A stretch of DNA of 64,000 nucleotides from assembly GCA_903884375.1 (NCBI GenBank), contig CAISER010000025.1:1637-65636 (forward strand), read 5' to 3'. Source of the stretch: Candidatus Collierbacteria bacterium (GTDB taxonomy: Bacteria > Patescibacteriota > Microgenomatia > UBA1400 > MFAQ01). Position 1 is the first letter of the stretch. Every line of letters starts with the position of its first letter. The notes beneath the pieces were generated by a model that did not search any database, was not told the origin of the DNA, and saw nothing but the letters and a program-made list of their open reading frames with translations. The translations under genes and the position numbers were made by a program. Of this stretch, positions 1,284 to 61,743 are shown in pieces.

Positions 1284-2228
1284 ATGAAAATTTTAGTAAC
1301 AGGAGGCGCCGGTTTTATTGGCTCACATCTTTGTAAAAGATTGTTGGCCGAAGGAAACGAAGTGATTTGTGTAGATAATTTTTTTACCGGACGAATTAAA
1401 AATATAAAGGAATTAAAGAAAACTGACAATTTTTTGGTTGTTAAGCAAGATATTACAAAACCTTTGAAGTTTTCCGGTCTGGATAGAATATACAACTTGG
1501 CTTGTCCGGCTTCTCCTCCTGCTTACCAAAAAGATCCAGTTTTTACTTGGAAAACATGTGTTCTTGGTATGTTGAATGTATTAGAACTGGCAAAGAAAAA
1601 TGACGGTTGTATTGTTTTACAAGCTTCAACATCAGAAGTGTATGGAGATCCCTTGCAACACCCACAAACGGAAAATTATCGTGGAAATGTTAACCCCGTT
1701 GGGATTCGCTCTTGTTATGACGAAGGGAAAAGGGCAGCCGAAACATTGATGATGGATTACCATCGAAAATATAAAATACCGGTAAGGATAATTCGAATAT
1801 TTAATACCTATGGGCCTAATATGGATCCAAAAGACGGCAGAGTGGTAAGTAACTTTGTGGTTCAAGCGTTGACCAACAGAAATATTACGATTTATGGTAA
1901 CGGAACACAAACGAGAAGCTTTCAATATATTGATGATTTACTTGAGGGAATGATAAAAATGATGGAAAACAAAGTTAATTTTTCCGGTCCAGTAAATATT
2001 GGGAATCCGGTAGAGTTTAGTGTAAAAAAATTGGCAATAACTGTTTTACAAATGATCCCTAAATCAAAAAGTAAGATTGTTTATAAAAATATCCCTGATG
2101 ATGATCCAAAACTAAGAAGGCCTGATATCACTTTGGCTAAGGAAAAATTATTATGGGAACCAACCGTAAAATTAGAAGACGGACTGATTCCTACAATCGC
2201 CTATTTCAAGTCTGAAGTGCTGGGGTAA
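1284..2228 (+). CDS. uxs: UDP-glucuronate decarboxylase (UDP-xylose synthase), NAD-dependent SDR epimerase/dehydratase family
   Basis: N-terminal Rossmann motif [14 protein letters not shown], followed by VDNFFTGR, a signature of UXS-type enzymes; 314 aa. Confidence 0.75.
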
Positions 2229-3133
2229 ATAATTGGTTGGCCATAGTCATATATTTTTATAGGAAAGATTTCTTTTTTGATAAGAATATTGTCTTTGTAG
2301 GTTATTTTTAATATCTCTCCGAGACGGGTTTCGTCTGACCACATTTGATCAAAAATGAGATTCCCGAGAGAGTAATATATTGGTTTTCCTTGATAGATTT
2401 CATCAGTTTGAACCCAGTGAGGATGATGGCCAACAACAATATCAGCACCGGAATCTATTGCAAGATGACCTAGAAATATTTGGCGGTTGTTTGGTTTGTT
2501 TTGATATTCCCATCCCCAGTGGAAGGTAGCAATAACAATATCTGCAGAGAGTGCGGCTTCGGATATTTGAGCCGACATAAAATTTTCGTCTAATTGGGGG
2601 AAATCAGAAAATGATATTAGAGCAATTTTCACATTCTTTACTGTATTAAAGACCGGTTTGCCAAGACCAATCGGGGTGATACCGTTATTGGTGAGTATAG
2701 AGATTGTTTCATCAACTCCTTTTTGTCCCTGATTGCCGATGTGATTATTAGCAAGAGAAGCGAAATCCACTCCAGCGTAAACCAAACCAAATACACTTTT
2801 GGGGTCAGCACAAAAAATCATGCCTTTATCGGTTGGACGACAATCCGTAATAAATGGAGATTCCAAATTGATGATGGATATATCTGCTTCGGATAAAAGT
2901 GAGGTGATATTTTTGAAAGGCCAAGTCGGGTCGGCGTATTTTTGGATACGGGTATTAACGGAACGACCCAGCATAACATCGCCAGTGAATATGAAAGTCA
3001 AGGGGGAAGAAATATTAGGAAAAATTAATTCCGGAAGACGACCGGTGATGGGTAATGGTTTGGCGGAATAAAAAAATATTCCAATAAATAATCCAAGGAT
3101 AAAGAGAAAAAACAGCTTTAAATAACTGCTCAT
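2201..3133 (-). CDS. CapA/PGA_cap-family metallophosphoesterase-like protein with N-terminal membrane anchor
   Basis: motifs [28 protein letters not shown] typical of CapA/YwtB; start chosen at internal ATG ([11 protein letters not shown] helix) preceded by GAGGAT Shine-Dalgarno, because the longer ORF start at 3262 would overlap rpsI; convergent 28 nt overlap with uxs. Confidence 0.65.
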
Positions 3134-3221
3134 GAGGACATTATCCTCTATTTGATGTTTTAACTCTTTGGAGACTGACCCCGGAGTACCGAGGACGAGT
3201 TGCTCCGCAAGTCGTCCGAAA

Positions 3222-3701
3222 TTAACGTTTCGGACTTTGTTTCTTGGCACGAGCACGACCACCTTGACCGGCTTTTCTGGTTTCTTTCATTCGAGGATCA
3301 CGAGTAAGGAAGCCCTTGTCACGCATTAATTTTTTATATTTTTCCGAATCAGCTTTAACTAACGCTCTACCAATACCATGCATAATAGCTTCTGCTTGGC
3401 TCATAATGCCGGATCCAGCAACTTTGATCGAACCAGTATATTGACCAAGAACATCAGCAATCACAAATGGGGAGTGAATCATTTTTTTGATAGTTTCTCC
3501 TTTGAAGTAGGTGGAGAGGGGTTTGCCATTAATCGTAAGCTCTTGTTTACCTGGCCAGATTCGAACACGAGCAATCGCAGTTTTACGCCGACCAACAGCC
3601 GAAAAATAATCTTTGGGCATAGCCAAAAGCCCTTTTTTAACCGGTGTTGTTTTGACCGGTTTGATAGCTACTTTGGATTTTTTGGTTAGTTTTTGTGCCA
3701 T
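3222..3701 (-). CDS. rpsI: 30S ribosomal protein S9 (with lysine-rich N-terminal extension)
   Basis: GRRKTAIARV core and C-terminal KKQSPKR; follows rplM with 2 nt gap. Confidence 0.92.
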   Translation of the reverse strand: MAQKLTKKSKVAIKPVKTTPVKKGLLAMPKDYFSAVGRRKTAIARVRIWPGKQELTINGKPLSTYFKGETIKKMIHSPFVIADVLGQYTGSIKVAGSGIMSQAEAIMHGIGRALVKADSEKYKKLMRDKGFLTRDPRMKETRKAGQGGRARAKKQSPKR

Positions 3702-10754: not shown

Positions 10755-11204
10755 TTACTTAGAAAAGGTGTATTTTCCACCAGCTTTTTCGATGGCTTTG
10801 ATAGCTCCGGCCGTGGCTAGAACATTGACTTCAAGAGCTTTTTCGAGCTTACCTGTGGCAATGATCTTGAAGCCACGTTTGGCTTCTTTGTCACTTACTT
10901 TGAAAGTTTTGACGAGGAGTGCAGCGTCAATGACGTCTTTGTCGTTGAAATATTTGGAGAGGATATCAAAGTTAACAGTGATTGGCTGAAGGTTAATGAC
11001 TTGGAATCTGTGTTTACCTTTAATGAAAGGGGTACGACGGACGATTGGAAGCTGTCCACCTTCAAACCAAAGGGGCATAACACCACGGGTCTTTTGGCCC
11101 TTTTGGCCACGACCAACGGTGTGACCGCCAACTCCTGAACCATAACCTCGACCAAGGCGTTTTTTACCGGTTTTGACTGATTTGGGTAGATTAGATAAGT
11201 TCAT
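10755..11204 (-). CDS. rplO: 50S ribosomal protein L15
   Basis: GRGYGSGVGGHTVGRGQKGQK L15 glycine-rich N-terminus. Confidence 0.93.
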   Translation of the reverse strand: MNLSNLPKSVKTGKKRLGRGYGSGVGGHTVGRGQKGQKTRGVMPLWFEGGQLPIVRRTPFIKGKHRFQVINLQPITVNFDILSKYFNDKDVIDAALLVKTFKVSDKEAKRGFKIIATGKLEKALEVNVLATAGAIKAIEKAGGKYTFSK

Positions 11205-11209
11205 AGGAT

Positions 11210-11743
11210 TTAGGCTTTGGTTTTAAGTTCTTTTAAGAGTTTGTATTTCTTGGCAAGTGACTCAACCTGTTTTAAAGCTTTGAAGGTGGCTCTAGCGTTG
11301 GTAGTCTTGTTGTTTGATCCAAGGGCTTTACAGACAATATCAGTGACTCCTGCGGCCTCAACAACGGCACGGATTGAAGAACCGGCGATGATGCCTGTAC
11401 CTTTAGGAGCTGGACGGAAGAGAACTTTACTGGCACCAAATTTAGAAATGGTCTCGTAAGGGATGGTACCGTTGACCAATGGAACTTGAACCAGATCACG
11501 ATTTCCAAGACGAATGGCTTTTTTTATTGCATCGGCAACGTTTGGGGCTTTGGCCAGACCAAGACCGACTTTACCTTTTTTGTCACCGGTAACGACTAAG
11601 GCAGAGAAAGAAACGTTGGAACCACCTTGAGTCTTTTTACTAACACGGCGAATTTGAAGGACTTGCTCGAAACCATCAGACTGAGGACGTTCTCCTCGGC
11701 CACCACGGTTACTGTTGTTGTTTGAGTTGTTTGAAGGATTCAT
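11210..11743 (-). CDS. rpsE: 30S ribosomal protein S5 (Asn-rich N-terminal extension); directly followed by L15 with no L30 gene
   Basis: S5 dsRBD-like and C-terminal domains; operon position. Confidence 0.93.
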   Translation of the reverse strand: MNPSNNSNNNSNRGGRGERPQSDGFEQVLQIRRVSKKTQGGSNVSFSALVVTGDKKGKVGLGLAKAPNVADAIKKAIRLGNRDLVQVPLVNGTIPYETISKFGASKVLFRPAPKGTGIIAGSSIRAVVEAAGVTDIVCKALGSNNKTTNARATFKALKQVESLAKKYKLLKELKTKA

Positions 11744-35502: not shown

Positions 35503-36255
35503 TTAGTTTTCGATTAAGGAACCCTCAACTACCAAGCGACGTAGTGTGGTTCCAGGAGGGACACAGGTCACTACTTTTATCGTTTTGGAATTGTAATTTT
35601 GTTTTAATACCCAGAGTTCAGAGGGTTTTACTTCAATTACTTTGGTAACCCGGTAGGTGTACTCTTTGTCATTGTATTTGACGAATATGTCCGAGCCAGG
35701 TTTTATTTTTGGAAGATTGGAAAAAATAGTGGTGTATTTTTGTGCATCAAAAAATTGGGGAAGGGTGGAATGGCCAAAAATAACCGGTGAGCCGACCTGC
35801 CCAGGAAGAGCTGTTTGAGGATACTGAACCAGATGTTTAGTAAGATCTTCATCAAAAAGACTAACTTTTGCTTCTGCTAGACCGAGAGAGGGAATCGAAA
35901 TGGTATAAAATTCCGGAATTTCTCCATCATTTTCGATAGGTGAATTGAAAAGCTGATTTTGAGTACTACCTGGGAACCAACTACTGGCTTTGGTGTAGTC
36001 TAAATCACTTAATACTTTGGGTTCACTATCCGAATTTGCTTTTGATTCGTAGTAAACAGGTGACAACAAACCTTGGTCTTTTGAGTTGAAAAGATTTATA
36101 TCTTTAAGCTGATAACTGACAACCGGATAAATAACTGCACCAAGAATCCCAAGCCCCAAAGCAGAAATTAGAGTAGGAATTGTTTTTAGATAGATAGGAA
36201 TTTTTTTCCCGGGATGCGGATTTTTTGCCGTAGCCTTTTTGTACCCGTAGAGCAT
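35503..36255 (-). CDS. sortase-family transpeptidase with N-terminal membrane anchor
   Basis: catalytic His context VIFGHSTL and TLxTC-like motif IKVVTCVPPGTTLRRLVV near C-terminus. Confidence 0.7.
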   Translation of the reverse strand: MLYGYKKATAKNPHPGKKIPIYLKTIPTLISALGLGILGAVIYPVVSYQLKDINLFNSKDQGLLSPVYYESKANSDSEPKVLSDLDYTKASSWFPGSTQNQLFNSPIENDGEIPEFYTISIPSLGLAEAKVSLFDEDLTKHLVQYPQTALPGQVGSPVIFGHSTLPQFFDAQKYTTIFSNLPKIKPGSDIFVKYNDKEYTYRVTKVIEVKPSELWVLKQNYNSKTIKVVTCVPPGTTLRRLVVEGSLIEN

Positions 36256-36256
36256 A

Positions 36257-38434
36257 TTATTTCTCTTTCAGCTCAAACTTGATGTTTTTTAGAGGAATAT
36301 AGTTGGCAAAAACAGGAATTTTGGGAGATATTCTGATGGTCAGATGGTCAAAACCTTGGATTGTGGTAAAAAAAGGACGAATATCGGCGGCCGGTTTCCC
36401 TTTGATAAATCCAGCAGTTTTTATCTCATCAATTTTAGGAAAAAGACTGGTTTCCACATTTATTTTGGCTTCATAGAAACTTCCTTTATTGGTGGGAGTT
36501 TCAAGTTTCATGGAAGTGTTACCGGGAAAAATTTCCGAACCGGAAGAAATTTTTGGAGAAAGCTGATTCGAAACTAACTGAAATAATCCGTCTTCGGAAT
36601 AAACAAGTGTTTCAACAGAACCTTCTAAATCAAGGTTGAGAACGGTGGCTTCTTCACCAACATTTTTATCAAAAGTTTTTTTGGTATAGGTAAAATCAGA
36701 CAGGGCTAAGGATTTATAACCCGTTGTTTGATCCCCTGTCGATGATTGAATCTGGGACGTTATCTTTTCACCAGCGATTTGAAGTAATTTTTCTTGATCA
36801 ATTTTCGAAACTGCTTGAACAGCTCTCGACGTACCACCGGAAAAGTCTGAGTCCGCCACAGCTACAATGGTGTTTTTTGAGTAGTTATCAACTGAAAAAG
36901 CAGAATTTTTGGGTAGATTGTGATCGGCACCAATTTTAGTAGCAGTTACTTTTACGCCTGAGGCAATTCCATAAGCACCCTGAACAATACCGACATCGGC
37001 GCTTTTGGAAGCGATGGTAATAGCCTCAGTAATGAGATAAGAATATTTGCCATTATCAGATAAGATTGAAGCACCTGATTTTAGAATAATCGGAGCAGTT
37101 GATTTGTTGGCGACAGTGATAATACCATTAGCTTTATCACCAACTGTTGCTTCTCCAGTGGTTGGAATTTGTTCTTTGGCGGAACCGAAAACTGTTTTTT
37201 TGGTGGCAAGTAGAGTTGGCGAACCGGAAATAGTGCTCTCGGCTATTGAAATTGAAAATTGATCGTTAATTTTTTCAGGTTTGAAATATATAGAGATGAT
37301 TGCTTGGCCGGTAAAAAGATAAAAAACAAAGCCTAAAATCAAAAATGCGGGAATAATAAGAAGATATAACCAGGAAAATTTACTTATTTTTAAGTTTGGA
37401 AAGTGAAATTTGGGTAATGAAGGAAGGGGTAGGGTATATTTTTGTTTGGGAGTTTTTATAAGAAGCGGTTCTTCGGGTTCAATAGCATATTCCGATTCTT
37501 CAGGTTCCGTTACCGATTCTATAATTGGCTCGGGCGGAGCTTTTTCAAGTGAGTCTGGAGCGGTTGATTCTTCGTAAGAAAAACCCAATTCACTTATAGA
37601 AGATGGTGTAACTTCGGGGATATAAATATTTGTTTCTTCTCGCGGAAGACTTTCTTCGTGAGTGTCTTCGATAACTTGCCCGGTAAGGTACTGAACAGCT
37701 TCGGTTCCTCCGGTGAGAGCAATGGCTTTAATACTAAAATCAACTGCCAATACTTCAACTTTTGGCATGTGCTGAAAAGGAAGGCGTTCTTGCCACGGAT
37801 GTGAAGTTATTCGTTGTTCCTCTTCTTCCAAGACTCCACCGTTAGTGAGAATAAAACGAGTGGGAAGTTTTTCGTGGCCGATCACGGTAAGCCCTTCTTC
37901 TACATCTTGTGCGAGGTCATCTGACCTTGCAGCTTCTTCTGAAGAAGTAATTTCACCTTTTTCTATAATTGAAACAACAACTTTGGTGGTATAAATCTCT
38001 AACAGAATAGCTGTCGGAGGAATACCTTCAAGTTTTTTCATGTAATGGGCAATTGCCGAGTTTATGGGAACCATACCAATCGGGTTAAGGCCCAACTCTT
38101 TTACCAGTCTGGCAATAAGTTTCGTTTTTGAAGGATGTATTTTGCCGTCATGTATCCAAGAATCCGGCAAACCAAAAATGACTTTACGCGGTTCTGCTTT
38201 AATTATTTTGACAGCTTGTTCGAGAGAGGCATCAACACCATTAATAAGTGAGTCTTCATCGGTCCAAGACTCAAATGAACCGACACTTACAACCGAAGGA
38301 TTGCCATTGGCAATTTCCCAAAGGGCGGTTTTGATTAAAGATTCATGGATTTCGATGGCCAAAAAATATTCCGGTTCTGTGGATTTTGATTTGTTCCCAA
38401 ATAGATTTACAAGATTCATGACGACAGTCGTCAA
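36257..38434 (-). CDS. fusion protein: cytoplasmic FtsA/PilM-like actin-fold domain, acidic Pro/Glu linker, single TM helix, about 350-aa extracytoplasmic beta-rich domain
   Basis: N-terminal YFLAIEIHESLIKTALWE...VVSVGSFE resembles FtsA/PilM phosphate-1 region; TM FSWLYLLIIPAFLILGFVFYLF; translationally coupled (ATGA) to alaS; next to sortase. Confidence 0.5.
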   Translation of the reverse strand: MTTVVMNLVNLFGNKSKSTEPEYFLAIEIHESLIKTALWEIANGNPSVVSVGSFESWTDEDSLINGVDASLEQAVKIIKAEPRKVIFGLPDSWIHDGKIHPSKTKLIARLVKELGLNPIGMVPINSAIAHYMKKLEGIPPTAILLEIYTTKVVVSIIEKGEITSSEEAARSDDLAQDVEEGLTVIGHEKLPTRFILTNGGVLEEEEQRITSHPWQERLPFQHMPKVEVLAVDFSIKAIALTGGTEAVQYLTGQVIEDTHEESLPREETNIYIPEVTPSSISELGFSYEESTAPDSLEKAPPEPIIESVTEPEESEYAIEPEEPLLIKTPKQKYTLPLPSLPKFHFPNLKISKFSWLYLLIIPAFLILGFVFYLFTGQAIISIYFKPEKINDQFSISIAESTISGSPTLLATKKTVFGSAKEQIPTTGEATVGDKANGIITVANKSTAPIILKSGASILSDNGKYSYLITEAITIASKSADVGIVQGAYGIASGVKVTATKIGADHNLPKNSAFSVDNYSKNTIVAVADSDFSGGTSRAVQAVSKIDQEKLLQIAGEKITSQIQSSTGDQTTGYKSLALSDFTYTKKTFDKNVGEEATVLNLDLEGSVETLVYSEDGLFQLVSNQLSPKISSGSEIFPGNTSMKLETPTNKGSFYEAKINVETSLFPKIDEIKTAGFIKGKPAADIRPFFTTIQGFDHLTIRISPKIPVFANYIPLKNIKFELKEK

Positions 38435-45697: not shown

Positions 45698-47062
45698 ATG
45701 GAAAAATTGGTGAAAGAAAGAGTGATTCGAATATTTAATTTATCAGAGGATGTTTGGCCTTTTATTGAAACGATGGGCAACAAAAAGGCAAGAATGTCGG
45801 AGATTGAGGAAAACGCAAACTTGGCCGACCGTGATTTGTTTTCAATGGCTGAGGAGTTTGAGTTTACCTTTATCACTCCCAAAAAACTGGATCCCCATTT
45901 CGTAAACTACTTTATCAAAGTTTGTATGATGCGGGAAATGGAAGTATTGGTTCCCAAAAAAAATAGTGGACTTATTTGTGAGGATATTTTGGCGGATAAG
46001 GAGATTATGAAGAGGCTTGTTAAACTGGGGAAGAGCTGTAAAAGATTGGTGCTTACCGCCTACTCTACTTCGCCATATTTTTTACACTTGGTTGGCGAGT
46101 TACGGAAAAAGGGAATTGAAGTACGAACACCAGAAGCTCCAGATGAGGCTAATGCTTGGACGGTAAATTTTTACGGAAGCAAATCGGGGATAAGACAACT
46201 GACACAGATAAACGGGGCAATTAGAGCGGACTTGAAAATGCCTAATGGAGTTGTTTCCTCGGGAGTGTTGGACTCTGCAAGGATAGCGGCAAATAAATAT
46301 ATAAAGGAAAATGGAGTAGTAATCAAAACAAACAAAGGCCACTCAGGAATGGGAGTACTTATTTTCCGTAAAGGTGATTTGCCGAAAAAATATCGAGAGT
46401 GTCAGAAAAAAATTATTGAAATATTTAACGGAGACAGTTACTGGGAAAAATTTCCGATCGTGGTGGAGTCTTTGGTAAAACCCAATCCTCGGATCGGAGG
46501 AGGTTTTCCAAATGCGGAGTTTTTGATAAAAAAAGATGGCGAGGTAAAACTTTTGTATTACTGTGGAATGCGAGTAGACGACAAGGGCGTTTTTGGCGGA
46601 GTGGAGATAGGAGAAGAAGTATTGCCTCGTCGTGTGACTTCCAGAATTACCGATATCGGTTATCTAATTGGCGAACAGTATGCCGAAGACGGTTATCGTG
46701 GTTTTTTTGATATTGATTTTATTGCCGGAAAAGGTGGAGAGATATTTGTGAATGAGTCGAATGTAAGAGTCACTGGAGGAACACATGTGTATCAAGCAGC
46801 AGTAGAACTGGCTGGGCGAGAGTTTATGAAGAAAGTCTATGTGTTGTCGAATAATAACTACGATATTCCAAACAAAAAAATCTTTACTTTCGACAGACTT
46901 CATAAACTAATGAAACCGATACTTTTTGACAGAAAAACGCGTGAGGGATTGGTGATTGCATCGTCAAATCTATTGGCAATGGGAAAACTGGCTTACATTA
47001 TTTTTGGAAAAAATAAACGTAGAGCTTTGGCCGTCGAGGAAGAGATGACGAGATTATTATAA
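45698..47062 (+). CDS. ATP-grasp superfamily carboxylate-amine/thiol ligase, subfamily unassigned
   Basis: VVIKTNKGHSGMGVLIF matches ATP-grasp phosphate-binding loop (cf. RimK VVxKPxxGSxGxGV); C-terminal FVNESNVRVTGG matches the E-x-N-x-R motif; 454 aa; only plus-strand gene in a 45-kb minus-strand block. Confidence 0.7.
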   Translation: MEKLVKERVIRIFNLSEDVWPFIETMGNKKARMSEIEENANLADRDLFSMAEEFEFTFITPKKLDPHFVNYFIKVCMMREMEVLVPKKNSGLICEDILADKEIMKRLVKLGKSCKRLVLTAYSTSPYFLHLVGELRKKGIEVRTPEAPDEANAWTVNFYGSKSGIRQLTQINGAIRADLKMPNGVVSSGVLDSARIAANKYIKENGVVIKTNKGHSGMGVLIFRKGDLPKKYRECQKKIIEIFNGDSYWEKFPIVVESLVKPNPRIGGGFPNAEFLIKKDGEVKLLYYCGMRVDDKGVFGGVEIGEEVLPRRVTSRITDIGYLIGEQYAEDGYRGFFDIDFIAGKGGEIFVNESNVRVTGGTHVYQAAVELAGREFMKKVYVLSNNNYDIPNKKIFTFDRLHKLMKPILFDRKTREGLVIASSNLLAMGKLAYIIFGKNKRRALAVEEEMTRLL

Positions 47063-47193: not shown

Positions 47194-48255
47194 TCACCAC
47201 TTTGGTAGAAATGATTTTATATTTTCGGGCGTGAGAGATATTGTCTTGGCTTGACCGGTAACAATTAATAGAGCAACTTTACGGACAATACCTTCGATCG
47301 TGCGATTTAGGGTACGAATACCGGCGTCGTAACCTAGAGGACGAATAATCATCGGCCAGAGAGCAGGGTCAATGGTAATGATTGAGGGATCCATACCGGC
47401 GGCTTCCAAAGCTTTGGGGAATAGATATTCGAGGGCAATATGAGTTTTTTCATCGTCGGAGTAAGAAGGCATTTGAATTGGTTCCAAACGATCCATAACG
47501 GCGGTCGCTAAATTGCCCGTGTTGTTGGCCGTGGCGATAAACATAACTTCGGAAAGGTCAACGGGGTAATCAATAAAGTGATCGAGAAAACGATTGTTTT
47601 GCGTTGGATCAAGAAGCTCGACCAAAACACCCATAATATCAGCTCTGGCTTCTTCGGTAACACGGTCGATTTCATCCAGAAGAATAATGGGGTTTTTAAC
47701 TCCCGTATCACAAAGAGCTCTGACCACATAACCAGGTTCGGCTTCAAGATGTAGACGAGACTGGCCACGTAAGTCTTTAGCTGAACCCAAACCTCCAAAA
47801 GGAATACGGGCAATGGGGCGGCCAAGCGCTTCAGAGAGGGCATAAGCAAAAGTAGTTTTACCGGTACCAACAAGACCAACTAAGCAAACAATCGGAGCTC
47901 TCCCCGCTCCAAGGTTTCTGGTGGTACGGAGTTTTAAGATAGACATATATTCAAGAATTCGTTCCTTGACCTCGTTCATGCCGTAGTGATTTTTATCAAG
48001 TGTGGCCTTGATAGCAGTTAAGTCAATCGGGCGTTCGACTCTTTTTGTCCAAGGAACTTTGGCAACCCAAGAAATATAGTGGCTGATTTTTTCGTATTCT
48101 TCAGAAAAAAATCCTTGGGTGGAAAGACGCTCGAGACGAGCAATCATATCAAGAGTATTTTCTTTTAACTCTGGGGGTGTTTCGATACTTTCAATTTTTT
48201 GACGAAGATCATCAAGAAGAGTATTGGCTTTTGTGGTGATTGGAGCAGGATCCAT
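47194..48255 (-). CDS. Lon-like AAA+ ATPase lacking both the Lon N-terminal (LAN) domain and the S16 protease domain
   Basis: near-collinear match to the LonA AAA+ module: YISWVAKVPWTKRVERP...LDKNHYGMNEVKERILEYM (cf. Lon LDxDHYGLExVKxRILEYLAV), Walker A GLVGTGKTT, Walker B ILLDEID, sensor/Arg-finger region; protein ends exactly where the Lon protease domain would begin. Confidence 0.75.
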   Translation of the reverse strand: MDPAPITTKANTLLDDLRQKIESIETPPELKENTLDMIARLERLSTQGFFSEEYEKISHYISWVAKVPWTKRVERPIDLTAIKATLDKNHYGMNEVKERILEYMSILKLRTTRNLGAGRAPIVCLVGLVGTGKTTFAYALSEALGRPIARIPFGGLGSAKDLRGQSRLHLEAEPGYVVRALCDTGVKNPIILLDEIDRVTEEARADIMGVLVELLDPTQNNRFLDHFIDYPVDLSEVMFIATANNTGNLATAVMDRLEPIQMPSYSDDEKTHIALEYLFPKALEAAGMDPSIITIDPALWPMIIRPLGYDAGIRTLNRTIEGIVRKVALLIVTGQAKTISLTPENIKSFLPKW

Positions 48256-48367
48256 AGTTTCATTATATCCGTTTTAAAAAATACTTAGATCAGAATAAAT
48301 CACACACTCTATCTAAGAAAAGGATCTTTATCGAGGATATTATTAAATAGGGCTGCTGTTAATTTTA

Positions 48368-49363
48368 TTATCGAATATTGTAGGTTGGTGGCTTAGTGCT
48401 GCCGCTACCGGTGTTAATTCTGCACAAACTATCGTTAGTACAAGTGCTTTTAGGACATGTTGAGCTAATATTGACAGTTTTTGATATTGATTTACAAAGA
48501 TTGTTACTACATGTTTTGTAAATACAAACTTTTGTGTTTGCCACTCCTGATCCCACTGTCGAGCATTTACATGTAATGCTCCCATCTTTACAGGTACACA
48601 CTCTGCTCTTTGATTGTCCTGTTCCACAACCTAATGATGCCGGACAATTACCGGAACATTGATTATATGATTGACCGCTGGCAAAAGTATAACCATCACT
48701 GGTAGTGCAAGTGCCAGGCTTAATGATGGTACCGGCACAAGTATTATCATTTGAGCCTTTGCATGTACTAGTAGGACAGGTCGAACTTTGTTTAAAGGTC
48801 ATGTTATATGACTTACACTGACCCTGATAACACTGGGACCATTTACATTCTTTAGTCCCTGAGGGAACGGGCTCTTTATCGGCTATGCATTGGCCGACTG
48901 CGGAACTGGCGGTATAGTTTAAGGCAATTTTTCCATTACCACAGTGATAACCAGAGCAACACTGCCGGACATCATTCCAAGAAAAAACTCCACAGTGTCC
49001 ACCTTCTTCCACACACCTATTTGAAGTTGGTCGAGGTTTTTCAGTGCAATTCGATGGTTTACAGCTCGCGGTAAACGCTCTGCTCTCGCCTCCACCAGTG
49101 TAAGCGCAAATTTCTCCGGTTTTGCAGCCACCTTCCCAACCACATTTATTTGCGGTTGCCAGGCTGCTGCCACAAGTAACGTTTGCCGCTGCTGGTTCAC
49201 TTTCTGGAGCATTGGGGGCTACGGCTTGTCTGGCAGTTAATTGAGCAGCAATAAAAAGAACGGCACCAAGAATAGCAGCAAAAATTAAGACAGGAAAAAA
49301 CTTTTTCAAAAAAGGATTAGTATGCTGTTTGACAATCGTCTTCTTGGGCATCTTCTTGGCCAT
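48368..49363 (-). CDS. membrane-anchored, extremely cysteine-rich extracytoplasmic protein (about 32 Cys in about 270 residues, Thr/Ser/Gly-rich, repeated S-T-C-P-x-S-T-C-like units)
   Basis: Lys-rich N-terminus, one TM/signal-anchor (FFPVLIFAAILGAVLFIAAQL), then Cys-rich domain; locally GC-richer than surroundings; no bacterial family recognised. Confidence 0.7.
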   Translation of the reverse strand: MAKKMPKKTIVKQHTNPFLKKFFPVLIFAAILGAVLFIAAQLTARQAVAPNAPESEPAAANVTCGSSLATANKCGWEGGCKTGEICAYTGGGESRAFTASCKPSNCTEKPRPTSNRCVEEGGHCGVFSWNDVRQCCSGYHCGNGKIALNYTASSAVGQCIADKEPVPSGTKECKWSQCYQGQCKSYNMTFKQSSTCPTSTCKGSNDNTCAGTIIKPGTCTTSDGYTFASGQSYNQCSGNCPASLGCGTGQSKSRVCTCKDGSITCKCSTVGSGVANTKVCIYKTCSNNLCKSISKTVNISSTCPKSTCTNDSLCRINTGSGSTKPPTYNIR

Positions 49364-49442
49364 ATTAGTGTGAGTTAATTATTAATTAAATTAATTAACC
49401 TCTGTTTTAATAATAACTGTTTTTTTGTAAAGGTCAAATTAA

Positions 49443-49470
49443 CAAAACGCCCCGAGAATCGGAGCGTTTA
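49443..49470 (-). terminator. intrinsic terminator downstream of pnp (ACGCCCCGA-GAA-TCGGAGCGT hairpin, U-tract on minus transcript)
   Basis: aacaaaacgccccgagaatcggagcgtttattg read directly. Confidence 0.55.
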
Positions 49471-49499: not shown

Positions 49500-51677
49500 T
49501 TAACGAGAGTCTCTAAAATTGCGGAAGTTTGGACGACCACCACCTCTTTGACCGCCTCGATCACCACCGCCAAATCTTGGCCTGTCTCCTCCGCCACCCA
49601 TAGGTCGCTGTGCTCTTATTGGTTCCTCGCCTTCTTTGAGCATGGTGAGATTTACGCGACCCATGGAGTCTACTTCGTAACATCTGACTTCAACTTTGTC
49701 GCCGATTTTCATTGTTTTGAAAACTTCTGGTTGGACTTGGGAAATATGAACTAAACCATCTTTCCCCGGAAGAATATTGACGAATGCGCCAAAAGCTTCA
49801 ACTCTAGCAACAGTACCTTGATAGGTCATGCCAACTTCGGCTTCGGCAACAATGGAATCAATGAAAGCTCTGGCTGCATCTACCTTGGATTGATCTGTAC
49901 CGGTAACGGTAACAGTACCATCATCTTCGATGTTGACTTCAACTAAGAAATCATCTTGGATTTGGTGAATGATCTTGCCACCTGAACCAATAACGTCACC
50001 AATCTTGGCAACCGGGACTTTGGTGGAAACAATTTTAGGAGCGTACTGAGATAGTTTTTCGCGTGGAACAGAAATGGATTCGACCATGAGGTCTAGAATC
50101 TTCATTCTGGCACGTTTGGCTTGTTCAACAGCTTGGGTTAGGACTTCGGCTTTGATACCCGTAACCTTGACGTCCATTTGGAGAGCGGTGATACCGTCTT
50201 TGGTTCCAGCGACTTTGAAATCCATGTCACCTAGGTGATCTTCGAGACCACAGATGTCGGTGAGGGTGACAAAATCTTTGCCTTCGGTAATTAGTCCCAT
50301 GGCAGTACCGGCAACAGGTTTTTTAATTGGAACACCAGCGTCCATGAGAGACAAGGTAGAACCACAAATTGAGGCTTGAGAAGTAGAGCCATTTGAAGAC
50401 ATAACTTCAGAGACAACACGAATGGTATACGGGAAAACGGCGGTGTCTGGAAGGACAGGAACCAAGGCTCTTTCGGCAAGATTCCCATGACCAATCTCAC
50501 GGCGACCTGTACCTGGGCGACCAACTTCACCGGCTGCGTAGCCTGGCATGTTGTAGTGATGCATATAGCGCTTGGTGGTTTCACCCTTCATACCATCGAT
50601 AAGCATTTCTCTGGCTGGAGAAGCTAGAGTAACAACCGAAAGTACATGAGTAAGTCCTCTTTGGAAAAAGGCAGAGCCGTGAGTACGAGGAAGCAAACCA
50701 ATCTCGATATTGATAGGGCGAATATCCTCGATTCCACGTCCGTCTGGTCTGGTTTTGGTTTCGAGAATGGTTTTTCTAGCCTCGTCACGAAGCATATGAT
50801 CAGCGGTTTCGGCAATGTGACTAGCATTGTATTCTGGATGAGCGGCGATAATGCCGTCGACGATTTCTCTAGCTTGGATTCCAGTTTTGGTAGCTTCGTT
50901 TTTCAAGATTACTTGAAGATCTCCAATTTCGGCGCTAACAAACTTTTTAATTTCAGAATCTATAACGATTTCAGGGATAGTACGTTTGGCTTTGCCGTTT
51001 TCTTTGGCAAATTTGTCAATTCCTTCGGCAATGATGTCGACATATTTTTGAGCGTAGGCAAGGGCGCCGGTCATCTTTTCTTCGGAAACTTCATTGGCTC
51101 CGGCCTCAACCATACAAATGCCCCCCTTAGGACCAGAAACGACAAGATCGAGAGGAGAAACAAGCTTTTCTTGCTCATTTGGGTTGATGATGTACTCACC
51201 TTCTGGGGTCATACCAACACGAACAGCACCAACCGGTCCGGCCCATGGATAGTCAGAAAGAGATACAGCAGCTGAAGAAGCAATAATGGCTAAAATTTCT
51301 GGCTCTTCGACTCCATCGATGGAGAGAGGATAAGACATGATCTGAACTTCATTTCTTGAAGCTTGATCAAACAAAGGACGGAGAGAGCGATCGATCACAC
51401 GACCAACAAGGATTTCACCTTCTGAAGGACGTCCTTCACGTTTTATAAAACGACTGGAAGAAATAACTCCACCTGCGTAGAATTTTTCTTGGTAATCAAT
51501 GGAAAGAGGAAAATAATCAATTCCTTCTTTAACTCTGTTTGTGGCTACTACTGAAGCAACAACTATAGTGTCGCCGCATCTTGCAGTAACAGAACCTGAG
51601 GCCTGGGCACCAAAACGGCCGGTTTCGATTGTAATTGTTTTACCATTGAGAACAATGGTAGTTTGAGGATGTGTCAT
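49500..51677 (-). CDS. pnp: polyribonucleotide nucleotidyltransferase (PNPase) with C-terminal RGG/Gly-Arg-rich tail
   Basis: two RNase PH domains, KH and S1 domains; start set at ATG MTHPQTTIV preceded by AAAGGA (ORF-track start 51704 is GTG); C-terminus GGGGDRPRFGGGDRGGQRGGGRPNFRNFR. Confidence 0.93.
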   Translation of the reverse strand: MTHPQTTIVLNGKTITIETGRFGAQASGSVTARCGDTIVVASVVATNRVKEGIDYFPLSIDYQEKFYAGGVISSSRFIKREGRPSEGEILVGRVIDRSLRPLFDQASRNEVQIMSYPLSIDGVEEPEILAIIASSAAVSLSDYPWAGPVGAVRVGMTPEGEYIINPNEQEKLVSPLDLVVSGPKGGICMVEAGANEVSEEKMTGALAYAQKYVDIIAEGIDKFAKENGKAKRTIPEIVIDSEIKKFVSAEIGDLQVILKNEATKTGIQAREIVDGIIAAHPEYNASHIAETADHMLRDEARKTILETKTRPDGRGIEDIRPINIEIGLLPRTHGSAFFQRGLTHVLSVVTLASPAREMLIDGMKGETTKRYMHHYNMPGYAAGEVGRPGTGRREIGHGNLAERALVPVLPDTAVFPYTIRVVSEVMSSNGSTSQASICGSTLSLMDAGVPIKKPVAGTAMGLITEGKDFVTLTDICGLEDHLGDMDFKVAGTKDGITALQMDVKVTGIKAEVLTQAVEQAKRARMKILDLMVESISVPREKLSQYAPKIVSTKVPVAKIGDVIGSGGKIIHQIQDDFLVEVNIEDDGTVTVTGTDQSKVDAARAFIDSIVAEAEVGMTYQGTVARVEAFGAFVNILPGKDGLVHISQVQPEVFKTMKIGDKVEVRCYEVDSMGRVNLTMLKEGEEPIRAQRPMGGGGDRPRFGGGDRGGQRGGGRPNFRNFRDSR

Positions 51678-51775: not shown

Positions 51776-52066
51776 TTATTTTGCTGAGTCGCGCAACTGA
51801 CTGTTAATGTTTAGAGACTTGGTAACTTCAAGATAATCTTTTGAATTGGATTTTAGAAGATAATTTAGGAGGCGGCGTCTTTTGGAAATAATCTTTAAGA
51901 GGCCACGTCTGGAATGATTATCTTTATTGTGAACTTTTAGATGATTGGTGAGTTCTTCGATTTGGGCAGTGAGAAGGGCAATTTGCACACGAGGAGAACC
52001 AGTGTCTTTGTCACTGGCAGCGAAGGATTTTATGATATCTACTTTTGTTTCGGATTTAAGAGCCAT
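51776..52066 (-). CDS. rpsO: 30S ribosomal protein S15
   Basis: [51 protein letters not shown]15 signature; start set to [11 protein letters not shown] (ORF-track start is TTG). Confidence 0.9.
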
Positions 52067-52131
52067 ATCGGGTTGTATTGTAACAGATGTATTTCGTTTT
52101 GCCAAGACTGAACTGTGCGTAAAGAAAAAAT

Positions 52132-52389
52132 TTAATCATCGGAATCAAGGTCTTTGTCTTTGGTTGGTTGAGATTTCCAGATACCACCCTTGTCTTCAGG
52201 CTCAACTGGTTCAAGTTCATTACCCCAGGCTCTAAACATTCTTACTTGTCTGGGGGTAAGTTTCCGGATCAAGACAACCCTTTCCCCTGTTTCGGGGACA
52301 ATCCCTGTTTCATAAGTACCGTCGGGTCCTTTTATCTTAAAAGGACGCGTAATATCGTCGTCTTGTTCGTATTCTGGTATTCCACCCAT
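52132..52389 (-). CDS. small hypothetical protein, 85 aa, acidic C-terminus
   Basis: ATG-initiated ORF 15 nt downstream of the DHH-like gene and 26 nt upstream of rpsO; no family recognised. Confidence 0.4.
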
Positions 52390-52404
52390 ATTAACTATAT
52401 TATA

Positions 52405-53319
52405 TCAACCATTGTCACCAACACGGAAGATTTTAGGTTTGTTCCAGTCTGCCGGGATTGAGGTACCAGCTTCATTGGTAGATAGGTTTTCTTCTTCCGG
52501 AAGAGGAATGTTTTCTTCGGTAGGAGCCGATGGAACATCGGGCACTTCAAAAAATGGCGCTTGGGAAAAACGAGGAGTTTGAACTTTTGTTTTTGGAAGA
52601 TGAGCACCGGAGCGCATAAGGAAAGCAATGGCTTCAAAGGTGTCTGCCGTTAGATTGCCTGTGGATAAATTATTGGAACTTTCGTAAATATTGGTTAATA
52701 GATTTTGAGAAACAGAAGTGTTTAGTTTTAATTTTAATTCCTTGAGAAGACCAATAACCAACTCAGAAAAAGAACCCATGTTTTTGTGATAAAGATTGCC
52801 GGTAAATGCGGCTGGTCGAAGAGTATTGTTGAGATTTAGAATGGTGGCATTATCCAAAAAGTTTTTTTCATCGGCATAAATTTTTCCTAATTCTTCGAGA
52901 GAATTAATACCAAGAGTAATGACTAAGTCGGCTTGAGCTCCTGAGTAAGAGTATTTAACACCGCCGATATCGGGAACGGGAGCACCAGTTTTGGGTTTTA
53001 CCAATAGATAAAATTTGCCGTCATCTCTGACATCGTAGTCAACTTTATCCAAATCTTCTTCACGATAATCAAAGGAGATAATTAAGTTACGACTACCAAT
53101 GGAGTCGGGGATGTTTTTTATACCATTAGTTTCGTCATCAACTTCGACTTCACTTCCACAACCGATTTGAGAAATTTTCCCTGATTGTTTTAGAGCAAGA
53201 TGAAGACTGATTCCGGCGGTAACAAGATCTTTTCCTGGATCGGGAGGAAGAATAATAATAATAGACTTGGCAGATTTAATTAAATTATTAACGTTTATTT
53301 CCGATTTGTTGTCTTCCAT
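52405..53319 (-). CDS. DHH-family (NrnA-like) homolog with degenerate catalytic motifs, likely catalytically inactive
   Basis: collinear with NrnA N-terminal DHH domain (IIIILPPDPGKDLVTAG vs IvIhrHvrPDGDalGS; NLIISFDY motif II Asp retained) but DHH triad replaced by TLG and no GGGH DHHA1 motif; occupies the rbfA/nrnA slot after infB. Confidence 0.5.
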   Translation of the reverse strand: MEDNKSEINVNNLIKSAKSIIIILPPDPGKDLVTAGISLHLALKQSGKISQIGCGSEVEVDDETNGIKNIPDSIGSRNLIISFDYREEDLDKVDYDVRDDGKFYLLVKPKTGAPVPDIGGVKYSYSGAQADLVITLGINSLEELGKIYADEKNFLDNATILNLNNTLRPAAFTGNLYHKNMGSFSELVIGLLKELKLKLNTSVSQNLLTNIYESSNNLSTGNLTADTFEAIAFLMRSGAHLPKTKVQTPRFSQAPFFEVPDVPSAPTEENIPLPEEENLSTNEAGTSIPADWNKPKIFRVGDNG

Positions 53320-60351: not shown

Positions 60352-61743
60352 ATGGCTAGAAAAAGTGAGTTGTTTAAAAGCTTGATACCGTTGATTTTTG
60401 GATTAATAGTGATAGTCATTGTGGTAGAAGTAATCCCAAACGCGGTTAAGTTGGTTAGCAAAGCTTCGGGACAAAAAGCTGATTTAGTTTTTAATCTTGA
60501 AGGTGTTATCGGAAAGATGCCTACACCTTGGAGAAACTTGGCACAGGGAGGAGAAGAACAGGGTGATATGATTTCCAAAGTAATACCGGAAGTTCGGGCA
60601 CTAAAACCTGAGTATATTCGTATTGACCATATATATGACGCATATAAAGTAGTATCCAGAAATGAGGGGCAGCTCGTTTATGACTGGTCGCGTCTTGATA
60701 GTGCAGTAGCTTCAATCATGGCAACTGGTGCTAAGCCATTTTTATCTTTGTCTTATATGCCGGAAGTTATTGCCAAAGGAGATATAGTGTCGGCAGCTCG
60801 TGACTGGAGTGAGTGGGGACAGGTAGTGGGAGCAACAATTCAACATTACAGTGGCATAAATCAAAAAAATATTGATGGCGTAATTTATGAAGTGTGGAAT
60901 GAACCTGATTTGTTTGGCGGTTTTAAAACATACGGAGAGAAAAATTATCTTGATATGTATGCCGCCTCGGCTCGAGCGGCCGCTAATGTTCGTGGAACAA
61001 ATTTATTTGAAATTGGAGGACCGGCAACTACCGGACTTTATCAAAACTGGCTGGAAAGATTAATTAAATTTGTGGAAGCTAATAGTTTGAGAATGGATTT
61101 TATTAGTTGGCATAAATACACAACCGATCTTGAACAGTTCGAAAAAGATGTTACTTCCGCTAGATCTTGGGCAGAAAACATTCCAGCATTAATAAATCTA
61201 AAGTACTACGTAACAGAGTGGGGTTTTGATAGTGAAAACAACAAAGGATATGACGAGAGAAGCGGAGCTATCCATTTATTGGCGGCAACTAGAACTATGG
61301 TGGGAACTGTCGACCGTGCCTTTGTATTTGAAATAAAAGATGGTCCGGGACCGGAAAAATACTGGGGGCGATGGGGAGTTCTCACCAATGAAAAATTCGG
61401 TACACCCGAGAAAAAGCCTCGATATGAAGCGATCGAGTTTATCAATAGCTTGTATCCGTATCGTATAAGCGTTTCCGGTGAAGGATCTTGGATTAAGAGT
61501 TTGGCAACAGCAAATGAAAATGGTGATATTAAAATTTTGGTGACCAACTACGATTCAAAGAACAGCCATGTTGAAGCAGTGCCAATAACTTTGGAAAATT
61601 TACCAAAGAGTAAGTTCACAATTGTTCGAGATAACTTTATGGGAGAAAGTAGAAGTTTAAAAGTGGCTACAACAAGTGCGACATGGAAAACCAGTGAGTA
61701 TTTTGAACCAAACTCGGCGGCAATATTTACGATAAATTTTTAA
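60352..61743 (+). CDS. membrane-anchored glycoside hydrolase, clan GH-A (GH39/GH5-like)
   Basis: N-terminal TM helix; catalytic acid/base motif EVWNEPDL and downstream nucleophile context VTEWGFD typical of clan GH-A (beta/alpha)8 glycosidases. Confidence 0.6.
   Translation: MARKSELFKSLIPLIFGLIVIVIVVEVIPNAVKLVSKASGQKADLVFNLEGVIGKMPTPWRNLAQGGEEQGDMISKVIPEVRALKPEYIRIDHIYDAYKVVSRNEGQLVYDWSRLDSAVASIMATGAKPFLSLSYMPEVIAKGDIVSAARDWSEWGQVVGATIQHYSGINQKNIDGVIYEVWNEPDLFGGFKTYGEKNYLDMYAASARAAANVRGTNLFEIGGPATTGLYQNWLERLIKFVEANSLRMDFISWHKYTTDLEQFEKDVTSARSWAENIPALINLKYYVTEWGFDSENNKGYDERSGAIHLLAATRTMVGTVDRAFVFEIKDGPGPEKYWGRWGVLTNEKFGTPEKKPRYEAIEFINSLYPYRISVSGEGSWIKSLATANENGDIKILVTNYDSKNSHVEAVPITLENLPKSKFTIVRDNFMGESRSLKVATTSATWKTSEYFEPNSAAIFTINF

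Follow-up and report, generated by a model that had tools for sequence, protein, structure and literature searches.

Introduction

Surface proteins that join a variable ectodomain to a conserved anchoring leader are a known general kind. The Vsp, Vlp and Vsa proteins of Mycoplasma combine a conserved 5' untranslated region (5'UTR) and an N-terminal anchoring leader with divergent ectodomains, and are encoded by clustered, recombining paralogues. The variant-specific surface proteins (VSPs) of Giardia contain ~11–12% Cys, carry a variable ectodomain on an invariant anchor with a short conserved motif, and form a protease-resistant variable coat. Here we describe a gene for a Cys-rich, membrane-anchored protein, located at positions 48368–49363 on the minus strand of a 64,000-nucleotide stretch of DNA from a Candidatus Collierbacteria bacterium (contig CAISER010000025.1; the whole stretch is referred to as the window). 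An initial annotation, made from the sequence alone, had singled this gene out as a candidate host-attachment module. On balance, we lean towards its product being a disulfide-stabilised, recombination-diversified, membrane-tethered surface protein. It belongs to an uncharacterised and very rare family, which fits the general kind described above.

The locus resembles the Mycoplasma systems, which also belong to small-genome, host-dependent organisms, in that a conserved 5'UTR and leader are fused to variable ectodomains and paralogues are clustered. It differs in its anchor and in the composition of its ectodomain, as the Mycoplasma proteins have a lipobox-acylated Cys anchor and Cys-free tandem repeats, whereas the window protein has a transmembrane helix and Cys-rich modules. 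We found no site-specific invertase or proven phase-variable tract, only a run of seven A residues in a promoter-like spacer. The VSPs of Giardia are eukaryotic, CXXC-rich and anchored at the C-terminus (CRGKA tail), whereas the window protein is anchored at the N-terminus and has no CXXC; no sequence relationship between the two was found.

Among bacteria of the Candidate Phyla Radiation (CPR), Peribacteria encode large, strain-variable, Cys-rich extracellular proteins for which a role in attachment has been proposed (Anantharaman et al. 2016, PMC4736985). These share with the window protein a small-genome, probably symbiotic source organism, an exported or membrane-associated location, a Cys content of at least 7% and variability between strains. 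Compared by description only, the Peribacteria proteins average ~1,655 aa, belong to a 14-gene cluster and carry signal peptides, whereas the window protein has 331 aa, an N-terminal transmembrane anchor, an invariant motif and modules of 35–49 aa; in the NCBIfam scan it matched no Cys-rich repeat family. CPR genomes also commonly encode MdbA/DsbA-like oxidoreductases beside VKOR (bioRxiv 10.1101/335083). Together these two observations make a Cys-rich surface protein plausible for a CPR-type organism. The Pam pilus of CPR bacteria was considered and set aside, as its Ig-like pilins bear signal peptides and are unrelated. What is unusual about the locus described here is the combination of Cys-knot-like modules in a bacterium, an N-terminal transmembrane anchor with an invariant motif, and a clean cassette swap.

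Architecture of the protein

The gene and the parts of its product are as follows.

48368–49363, minus strand: complete gene for the Cys-rich membrane-anchored protein (basis: open reading frame (ORF) list, composition, identical database protein, syntenic homologues)
49301–49363, minus strand: Lys-rich cytoplasmic tail, aa 1–21, net charge +7, kept in close homologues
49244–49300, minus strand: transmembrane signal-anchor, aa 22–40 (FFPVLIFAAILGAVLFIAA), mean Kyte-Doolittle value 2.71, the only hydrophobic segment
49184–49243, minus strand: juxtamembrane motif, aa 41–60 (QLTARQAVAPNAPESEPAAA), unchanged across six close sequences whose codons differ synonymously
49046–49174, minus strand: module A, aa 64–106, 6 Cys, C-x9-C-x5-C-x5-C-x14-C-x4-C, the family-defining first module (13 copies aligned)
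48887–49015, minus strand: module B, aa 117–159, 6 Cys, C-x6-C-x10-CC-x4-C-x17-C, with a spacing like that of inhibitor cystine knot (ICK) peptides and CBM1
48737–48847, minus strand: module C, aa 173–209, 6 Cys, C-x4-C-x4-C-x12-C-x4-C-x7-C, internal duplicate of C', also in the relatives P0003 and P0008
48563–48709, minus strand: module D, aa 219–267, 8 Cys, ending C-x-C-x6-C-x-C, also in the C-terminus of the alternative allele P0002 (52% identity)
48422–48526, minus strand: module C', aa 280–314, 6 Cys, second copy of module C

The ORF starts with ATG and encodes 331 aa, and a protein identical to this product is present in NCBI/ENA (P0001). Since the plus strand beneath the gene holds no ORF of 50 aa or more, homologues occupy the same syntenic position, and leader codons 22–60 differ from those of a paralogue by 14 synonymous versus 3 non-synonymous changes, we consider the reading frame to be real; a true gene on the opposite strand, the artefact against which the initial annotation had warned, is not what we found. 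The same codon differences show that the leader is under purifying selection.

The description of the protein as membrane-anchored and unusually rich in Cys was borne out. Its 32 Cys make up 9.7% of the 331 aa and 11.8% of the 271 residues past residue 60, against an average of 0.62% in the other 41 genes of the window (binomial probability of at least 32 Cys, 1e-27), making it the sole Cys-rich real gene in the window. Ser, Thr and Gly together account for 31% of the protein. The Cys strings quoted in the initial annotation are all present, with STCPTSTC at aa 194–201, CTCKDGSITCKC at aa 256–267 and SSTCPKSTCTNDSLC at aa 300–314.

With its basic tail and one helix, the protein is predicted to be a single-pass type-II membrane protein with the N-terminus inside and the C-terminus outside; the C-terminus itself (..STKPPTYNIR) has no hydrophobic segment. 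Some distant homologues are longer at both ends, with 50–170 extra Pro/Thr-rich residues ahead of the same helix and the Cys modules followed by a beta-sandwich-like domain. Since these homologues extend so far N-terminal to the helix, it is a signal-anchor and not a signal peptide that is cut off. The first Cys lies at aa 64, well past the helix, and there is no LPXTG, which places the protein outside both lipoproteins and sortase substrates. The juxtamembrane motif takes the form QLTARQAVAPNAPESEP in the close group, QL[ST]xRQxV[AS]PNAPESxP as a family consensus and L[ST]x[RQK]QxV[AS]P[NT]APESxP in distant homologues. The leader seems to be a unit that this lineage uses generally for anchoring proteins at its surface.

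The ectodomain consists of five modules in the order A-B-C-D-C', with 6, 6, 6, 8 and 6 Cys, respectively, separated by linkers of 9–13 residues rich in Pro, Gly, Thr and Ser. Although the initial annotation had pointed to repeated short Cys spacings, we found no single periodicity; the regularity lies at the level of the modules. Modules C and C' are 45% identical (E=3e-9) and represent a true internal duplication. The Cys count is even in every module, as it is after the motif in 13 of 13 independent short family members, for which the chance expectation is ~2^-13. Even counts are what complete disulfide pairing within each module predicts. In the only confident model, AlphaFold2 folds module A into a compact mini-domain with a beta-hairpin core (predicted local distance difference test (pLDDT) score 76). 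The modules are probably disulfide-knotted.

Replacement of the ectodomain between strains

The gene lies in the order rpsO – pnp – Cys-rich gene – Lon-type AAA+ gene – (convergent) ATP-grasp-like gene – RNase J – FtsK. To examine variation at this locus we drew on a contig from another sample (L001), whose DNA identity to the window is 97.4% and 99.0% on the two sides of the gene. Two further features are defined by this comparison.

48217–49182, minus strand: allele-specific cassette that takes in the ectodomain-coding sequence, the spacer to the AAA+ gene and that gene's first 13 codons, in place of which L001 has an unrelated 486 bp (basis: blastn break points, break-point alignment, synonymous saturation)
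47717–48216, minus strand: 500 bp at the 5' end of the Lon-type AAA+ gene, 7–9% divergent from L001 versus 0–1.6% beyond (basis: sliding mismatch profile)

The flanking proteins of the two strains are 96.6–100% identical (PNPase 99.7%; the 454-aa ATP-grasp-like protein, RNase J and FtsK 100%), and the leader of the Cys-rich protein is 98% identical. DNA homology ends at 49183, the end of the leader, and returns at 48216, 13 codons into the AAA+ gene. Between these break points the window has 966 bp encoding modules A-B-C-D-C', whereas L001 has 486 bp encoding module A, a Pro/Thr linker and module D. The two modules shared by both alleles, A and D, are only 44% and 52% identical, and their synonymous codon differences reach 68% and 46%, versus 1–12% in the flanks. 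The break points are sharp. We infer that this pattern was left by homologous recombination, which exchanged an allelic cassette between the leader on one side and the AAA+ gene on the other; the swap is not the product of recent point mutation. The divergent 5' 500 bp of the AAA+ gene is probably the right-hand end of the recombination tract.

The window allele was found at 100% identity in two further assemblies, one of whose contigs was seen in 6 samples. Both of these contigs end inside the Cys-rich gene, starting at aa 161 and aa 182, and their overlaps of 516 and 453 coding bases are 100% identical to the window. The internal DNA of the gene contains no long repeat, and assembly breaks at such a site fit strain heterogeneity at the locus.

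A diversity-generating retroelement was considered as the source of variation and rejected, as the 64-kb window has no second copy of any stretch of the gene and no reverse-transcriptase domain occurs among the annotated genes; the differences between alleles are whole-module replacements and not adenine-specific changes.

Elsewhere in the alignment to L001, which is otherwise 0–1% divergent, three patches (51998–52497, 51248–51497 and 52998–53247) show 5–10% divergence, a pattern that suggests a mosaic of recombination tracts. The first of these covers an acidic 85-aa ORF (52132–52389) in the slot where distant relatives keep leader-bearing genes.

Relatives sharing the leader

Homologues of the protein are very rare, and the family is very small and lineage-restricted: three clusters were matched in an index of 5.8 billion proteins, and 14 clusters were matched at E<1e-3 among 1.84 billion representatives. 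We defined a family by its leader, as proteins with a basic tail, a transmembrane helix, the motif in its distant-homologue form given above and Cys modules starting with module A. The window protein has each of these elements, and the family so defined comprises P0001–P0004 and P0008–P0021. The 5'UTR, tail, helix, motif and usually module A are shared across the family, while the downstream modules differ and are shuffled; some members have an additional tail module, CPxGYxSNGKCEAGLRPxTxSNCC. We found no published name for the family, nor any in the databases searched.

Scans of GTDB genomes with a protein pattern and with a degenerate DNA pattern for TARQAVAPNAPE found no family member, and a scan of metagenomes added no new contig. 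From the 5.8-billion-protein index, profile searches recovered almost nothing, low-complexity and transmembrane words having probably swamped candidate selection. Contigs sharing the exact rpsO protein yielded no further alleles.

Relatives hold two to three leader-bearing paralogues in the same neighbourhood. In a related population (L002–L004; 77–85% DNA identity), three such paralogues are interleaved with AAA and 456-aa genes, and one protein of the set, P0005, is a chimera of a P0004-like tail and the P0003 ectodomain. In a distant pair of contigs (L013 and L015), the leader genes lie between infB and rpsO and again show a conserved leader with differing modules. One of these, L013, also has at 2805–3104 (plus strand) an uncalled leader-bearing paralogue of 99 aa with only 4 Cys and the tail module CPSGYESNGKCEAGLRPITTSNCC, in tandem with the gene for P0009.

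Marginal similarity to known folds

As the initial annotation described a eukaryote-like Cys-repeat texture, we compared the protein and its modules with known domain families. Against Pfam and NCBIfam at E<=10, the whole protein gave zero matches, and module-by-module searches gave nothing significant; phmmer against PDB sequences found no match. A ubiquitous periplasmic metal-binding family, which the initial annotation had named as a possible refutation, was likewise not what emerged from these scans.

Module B bears a marginal resemblance to the fungal cellulose-binding domain CBM1. By phmmer, module B aligned to P0007, which carries 11 CBM_1 repeats of the fungal type (E=2e-10, the sum across 8 repeats), and hhalign of an 8-repeat CBM1 profile against module B gave 91% probability and a pairwise E=1e-6 over only 24 of 34 columns. 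Module B contains the string GxCG..W.....CCSGYxC, which may correspond to the four-Cys CBM1 core G-x-C-G-G..W/Y..C..G..C. The Pfam CBM_1 model (PF00734), however, did not match module B, while the control P0007 scored 417 bits. By inspection, the last loop of module B is 8 residues longer than that of CBM1, and in an alignment by eye the aromatic face (Y5, Y31 and Y32 in CBHI numbering) is not conserved: the N-terminal position is His, and ..YYSQC is replaced by ..SSAVGQC after the longer loop.

Module B also fits the knottin spacing C-x(3-7)-C-x(3-11)-CC-x(1-5)-C-x(4-17)-C, by spacing only. Both modules A and B show marginal likeness to ICK peptides such as tachystatin B and the scorpion lambda toxins, with all E-values above 0.05. 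For module B, Tachystatin_B (E=0.079) was the sole Pfam listing by hmmscan at E<=10. For module A, AtDEF-like gave a marginal E=0.25, and the module profile searched against PDB sequences gave a marginal E=0.053 to the scorpion ICK toxin lambda-MeuTx; no fold or sequence match to module A was significant. The fold search listed EGF-type Pfs28 (E=1.7), and a sea-anemone toxin and hirudin were among its non-significant matches.

These results led us to treat "eukaryote-like texture" as a fair description of a marginal resemblance (to CBM1, ICK and EGF-type domains), while membership of the families that had been suggested found no support. No profile or fold match to EGF-like domains was significant. 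The protein likewise does not match the pattern of granulins or keratin-associated proteins, as it has one CC pair among 32 Cys and no Pfam match, and lacks both the 12-Cys pattern with four CC pairs and CC-rich pentapeptides. Nor does it fit the metallothionein pattern (~30% Cys in C-x-C or C-x-x-C clusters, few aromatics), having 12% Cys, no CxxC and 21 aromatics.

Proposed function and alternative explanations

We infer that the Cys form disulfide bonds, that the ectodomain lies at the cell surface, that recombination is what exchanges it, and that the protein works as an adhesin or as part of a surface coat. In such a scheme, the ectodomain would be exposed outside the cell as a string of five small modules, and the conserved 5' cassette (5'UTR, tail, transmembrane helix, juxtamembrane motif and module A) would anchor the protein and may direct its processing. 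At the DNA level, the same cassette could serve as the homology stretch for recombination that exchanges the downstream ectodomain. The outcome would be a strain-variable surface protein, and since exposed modules exchanged by recombination imply selection from an external partner, selection would probably come from the surface of a host cell, from phages or from predators. That near-identical strains differ so drastically in the ectodomain fits a role in surface interaction, of which the adhesin or host-attachment function proposed in the initial annotation would be a plausible form.

Several observations weigh against our preferred interpretation. Two alleles were recovered from the species-level population, so that "diversifying selection" stands for one replacement together with the paralogue pattern, and modules A and B of this ectodomain come from a single assembly. 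The full-length AlphaFold2 model, built from a 6-sequence alignment, is unusable (pLDDT 37.6, and ~25 in the module B region). There are no Dsb, VKOR or thioredoxin genes among the annotated genes of the 64-kb window. The source samples, finally, may come from lake water that is stratified or anoxic, in which disulfides outside the cell may be harder to maintain.

It is also possible, although we put this forward only tentatively, that the leader is an undescribed N-terminal anchoring or processing signal as well as a recombination handle, and that at least five private knottin-sized modules (A, B, C, D and the tail module) change host or phage specificity. Under that reading, the locus might, with the same reserve, be a bacterial counterpart in a CPR-like lineage of Giardia VSP or Mycoplasma Vsp variation. 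Partner recognition and the ways of coping with phages are largely unknown in ultra-small symbiotic bacteria, most of whose surface proteins are without annotation. The locus offers a compact and tractable case, with an anchoring leader that bears an invariant 17-residue motif, definable mini-domains and a natural allele swap. If the proposed function is true, following the alleles through metagenomic time series could reveal changes in host or phage specificity, and the modules would add bacterial examples to disulfide-rich mini-protein folds known mainly from eukaryotes. If this is merely another variable surface protein, it would still provide useful annotation for a family unnamed in the databases searched here.

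An alternative that we consider unlikely is that the protein forms a coat that protects the cell or acts as a decoy, or that phages use it as a receptor and so select for escape. It would then work like the VSPs of Giardia or the variable lipoproteins of Mycoplasma, and its variation would help to evade phages or grazers and not to adhere. The data on allelic replacement and paralogue shuffling apply equally to this explanation, the ~12% Cys content with a conserved membrane anchor mirrors the VSPs of Giardia, and Pfam and NCBIfam reveal no recognisable binding domain. Against it, searches of phages and PHROGs gave no phage-related match for the protein or the module A model, and the window contains one copy of the gene and no large silent repertoire. 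The data cannot separate a coat from an adhesin.

Less probable again is a membrane-tethered precursor of shed knottin- or defensin-like effectors, cleaved at the juxtamembrane motif and directed against a host or competitors. A conserved leader with a variable core is found in conotoxin and bacteriocin families, the invariance of the motif would suit a protease site, and the marginal ICK and antimicrobial likenesses described above (Tachystatin_B, AtDEF-like, lambda-MeuTx, sea-anemone toxin, hirudin) point in the same direction, but all of these toxin-like similarities are non-significant. The neighbours are pnp and the Lon-type AAA+, ATP-grasp-like and RNase J genes, with no maturation protease, C39/ABC exporter or immunity gene nearby. 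Cleavage by signal peptidase I is disfavoured when Pro directly follows the cleavage pair, as it does after the V-A/S pair of the motif. That larger relatives carry beta-sandwich domains on this leader suggests that it is an anchor of general use.

We regard as very improbable that the protein binds thiols or metals outside the cell, as a metallothionein-like protein or a redox buffer whose Cys are kept reduced in anoxic water. The high Cys content, with spacings that include C-x-C, CC (the sole pair, at aa 135–136) and C-x4-C, would suit such a function, as would the lack of an oxidoreductase gene among the annotated genes of the window. A metal-binding role is nevertheless unlikely given the absence of CxxC, the presence of only 3 His alongside 21 aromatics (9 Phe, 9 Tyr and 3 Trp), and a Cys content of 12%, far below that of metallothioneins. 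The even Cys count of every module and of all 13 short homologues and the compact beta-hairpin model of module A also speak against it, and wholesale allelic replacement is not expected of a metal buffer.

That the gene is an artefact of annotation or assembly (a false ORF, a true gene on the opposite strand, or sequence of two strains wrongly joined within the gene) is hardly tenable: although two other assemblies break inside it and modules A and B occur in one contig only, it has no competing plus-strand ORF, several independent metagenomes show its leader and module A conserved while synonymous sites vary, the frame and Cys pattern of module C continue unbroken across the contig break points, and the overlapping coding bases are identical throughout.

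Genomic context

Upstream of the gene, three further elements were identified.

49364–49409, minus strand: AT-rich conserved 5'UTR (..AGGTTAATTAATT..AACT.AC..AAT), common to all leader-bearing paralogues (basis: upstream sequence comparison)
49410–49437, minus strand: TTGACC-16-TATTAT, a promoter-like site whose spacer contains an A7 run (basis: consensus scan only, 10/12 matches)
49445–49469, minus strand: terminator-like hairpin of the upstream pnp gene (11-pair stem, then a T run)

Comparable TTGAC..TATA elements lie upstream of leader-bearing paralogues. The A7 run showed no length variation and is identical in L001. The hairpin that follows pnp suggests that the Cys-rich gene is transcribed on its own. 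Its start codon has no nearby Shine-Dalgarno sequence. A regulatory RNA in the 5'UTR was considered and rejected, as there is no Rfam match and covariation lends no support to the 5'UTR hairpin.

The elevated GC content that the initial annotation reported is slight (43.4% versus 40.6 ± 2.5% for the other genes), and both neighbours of the gene are higher. Since the excess is carried by codon position 2 (GC 0.572), it reflects amino-acid composition. GC at third codon positions (0.343 versus 0.331 ± 0.035) is native and leaves no compositional sign of foreign origin; the suggestion of horizontal acquisition on the basis of GC is thus not upheld. A phage origin was likewise rejected, tblastn against phages and a search of PHROGs having given no match.

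Downstream, the 353-aa protein encoded at 47194–48255 (minus strand) matches only the Lon AAA+ module (TIGR00763 positions 250–571 of 795), without the N-domain or the protease domain, and its gene adjoins the Cys-rich gene in close relatives. The 454-aa protein encoded at 45698–47062 (plus strand) has weak ATP-grasp-type matches (biotin carboxylase, BesA ligase, PGM1_C) and is 100% identical between the two strains; in the related population, the counterpart of its gene has leader-bearing genes on either side. As adjacency of these genes is missing in L013, L014 and L015, a functional operon with the Lon-type AAA+ or ATP-grasp-like gene was rejected, and the three genes are not treated as one system. 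A defence system was rejected as well, as PADLOC returned only weak generic AAA matches.

Other parts of the window provided several minor observations. At 10755–11743 (minus strand), the S5 and L15 genes lie 6 bp apart with L30 missing between them, as reported for CPR bacteria. This is the one taxonomic hint that the window provided, and it lends only indirect support to the episymbiont-like character proposed in the initial annotation. At 35503–38434 (minus strand), a sortase gene directly follows the gene for a 725-aa protein with a central transmembrane segment; this protein has no Pfam, NCBIfam or PHROG match and no C-terminal LPXTG. A GH39-type glycoside hydrolase is encoded at 60352–61743 (plus strand) and a PGA_cap (poly-gamma-glutamate capsule type) protein at 2201–3262 (minus strand), both of them with links to the envelope or to glycans, in a window that otherwise contains housekeeping genes.

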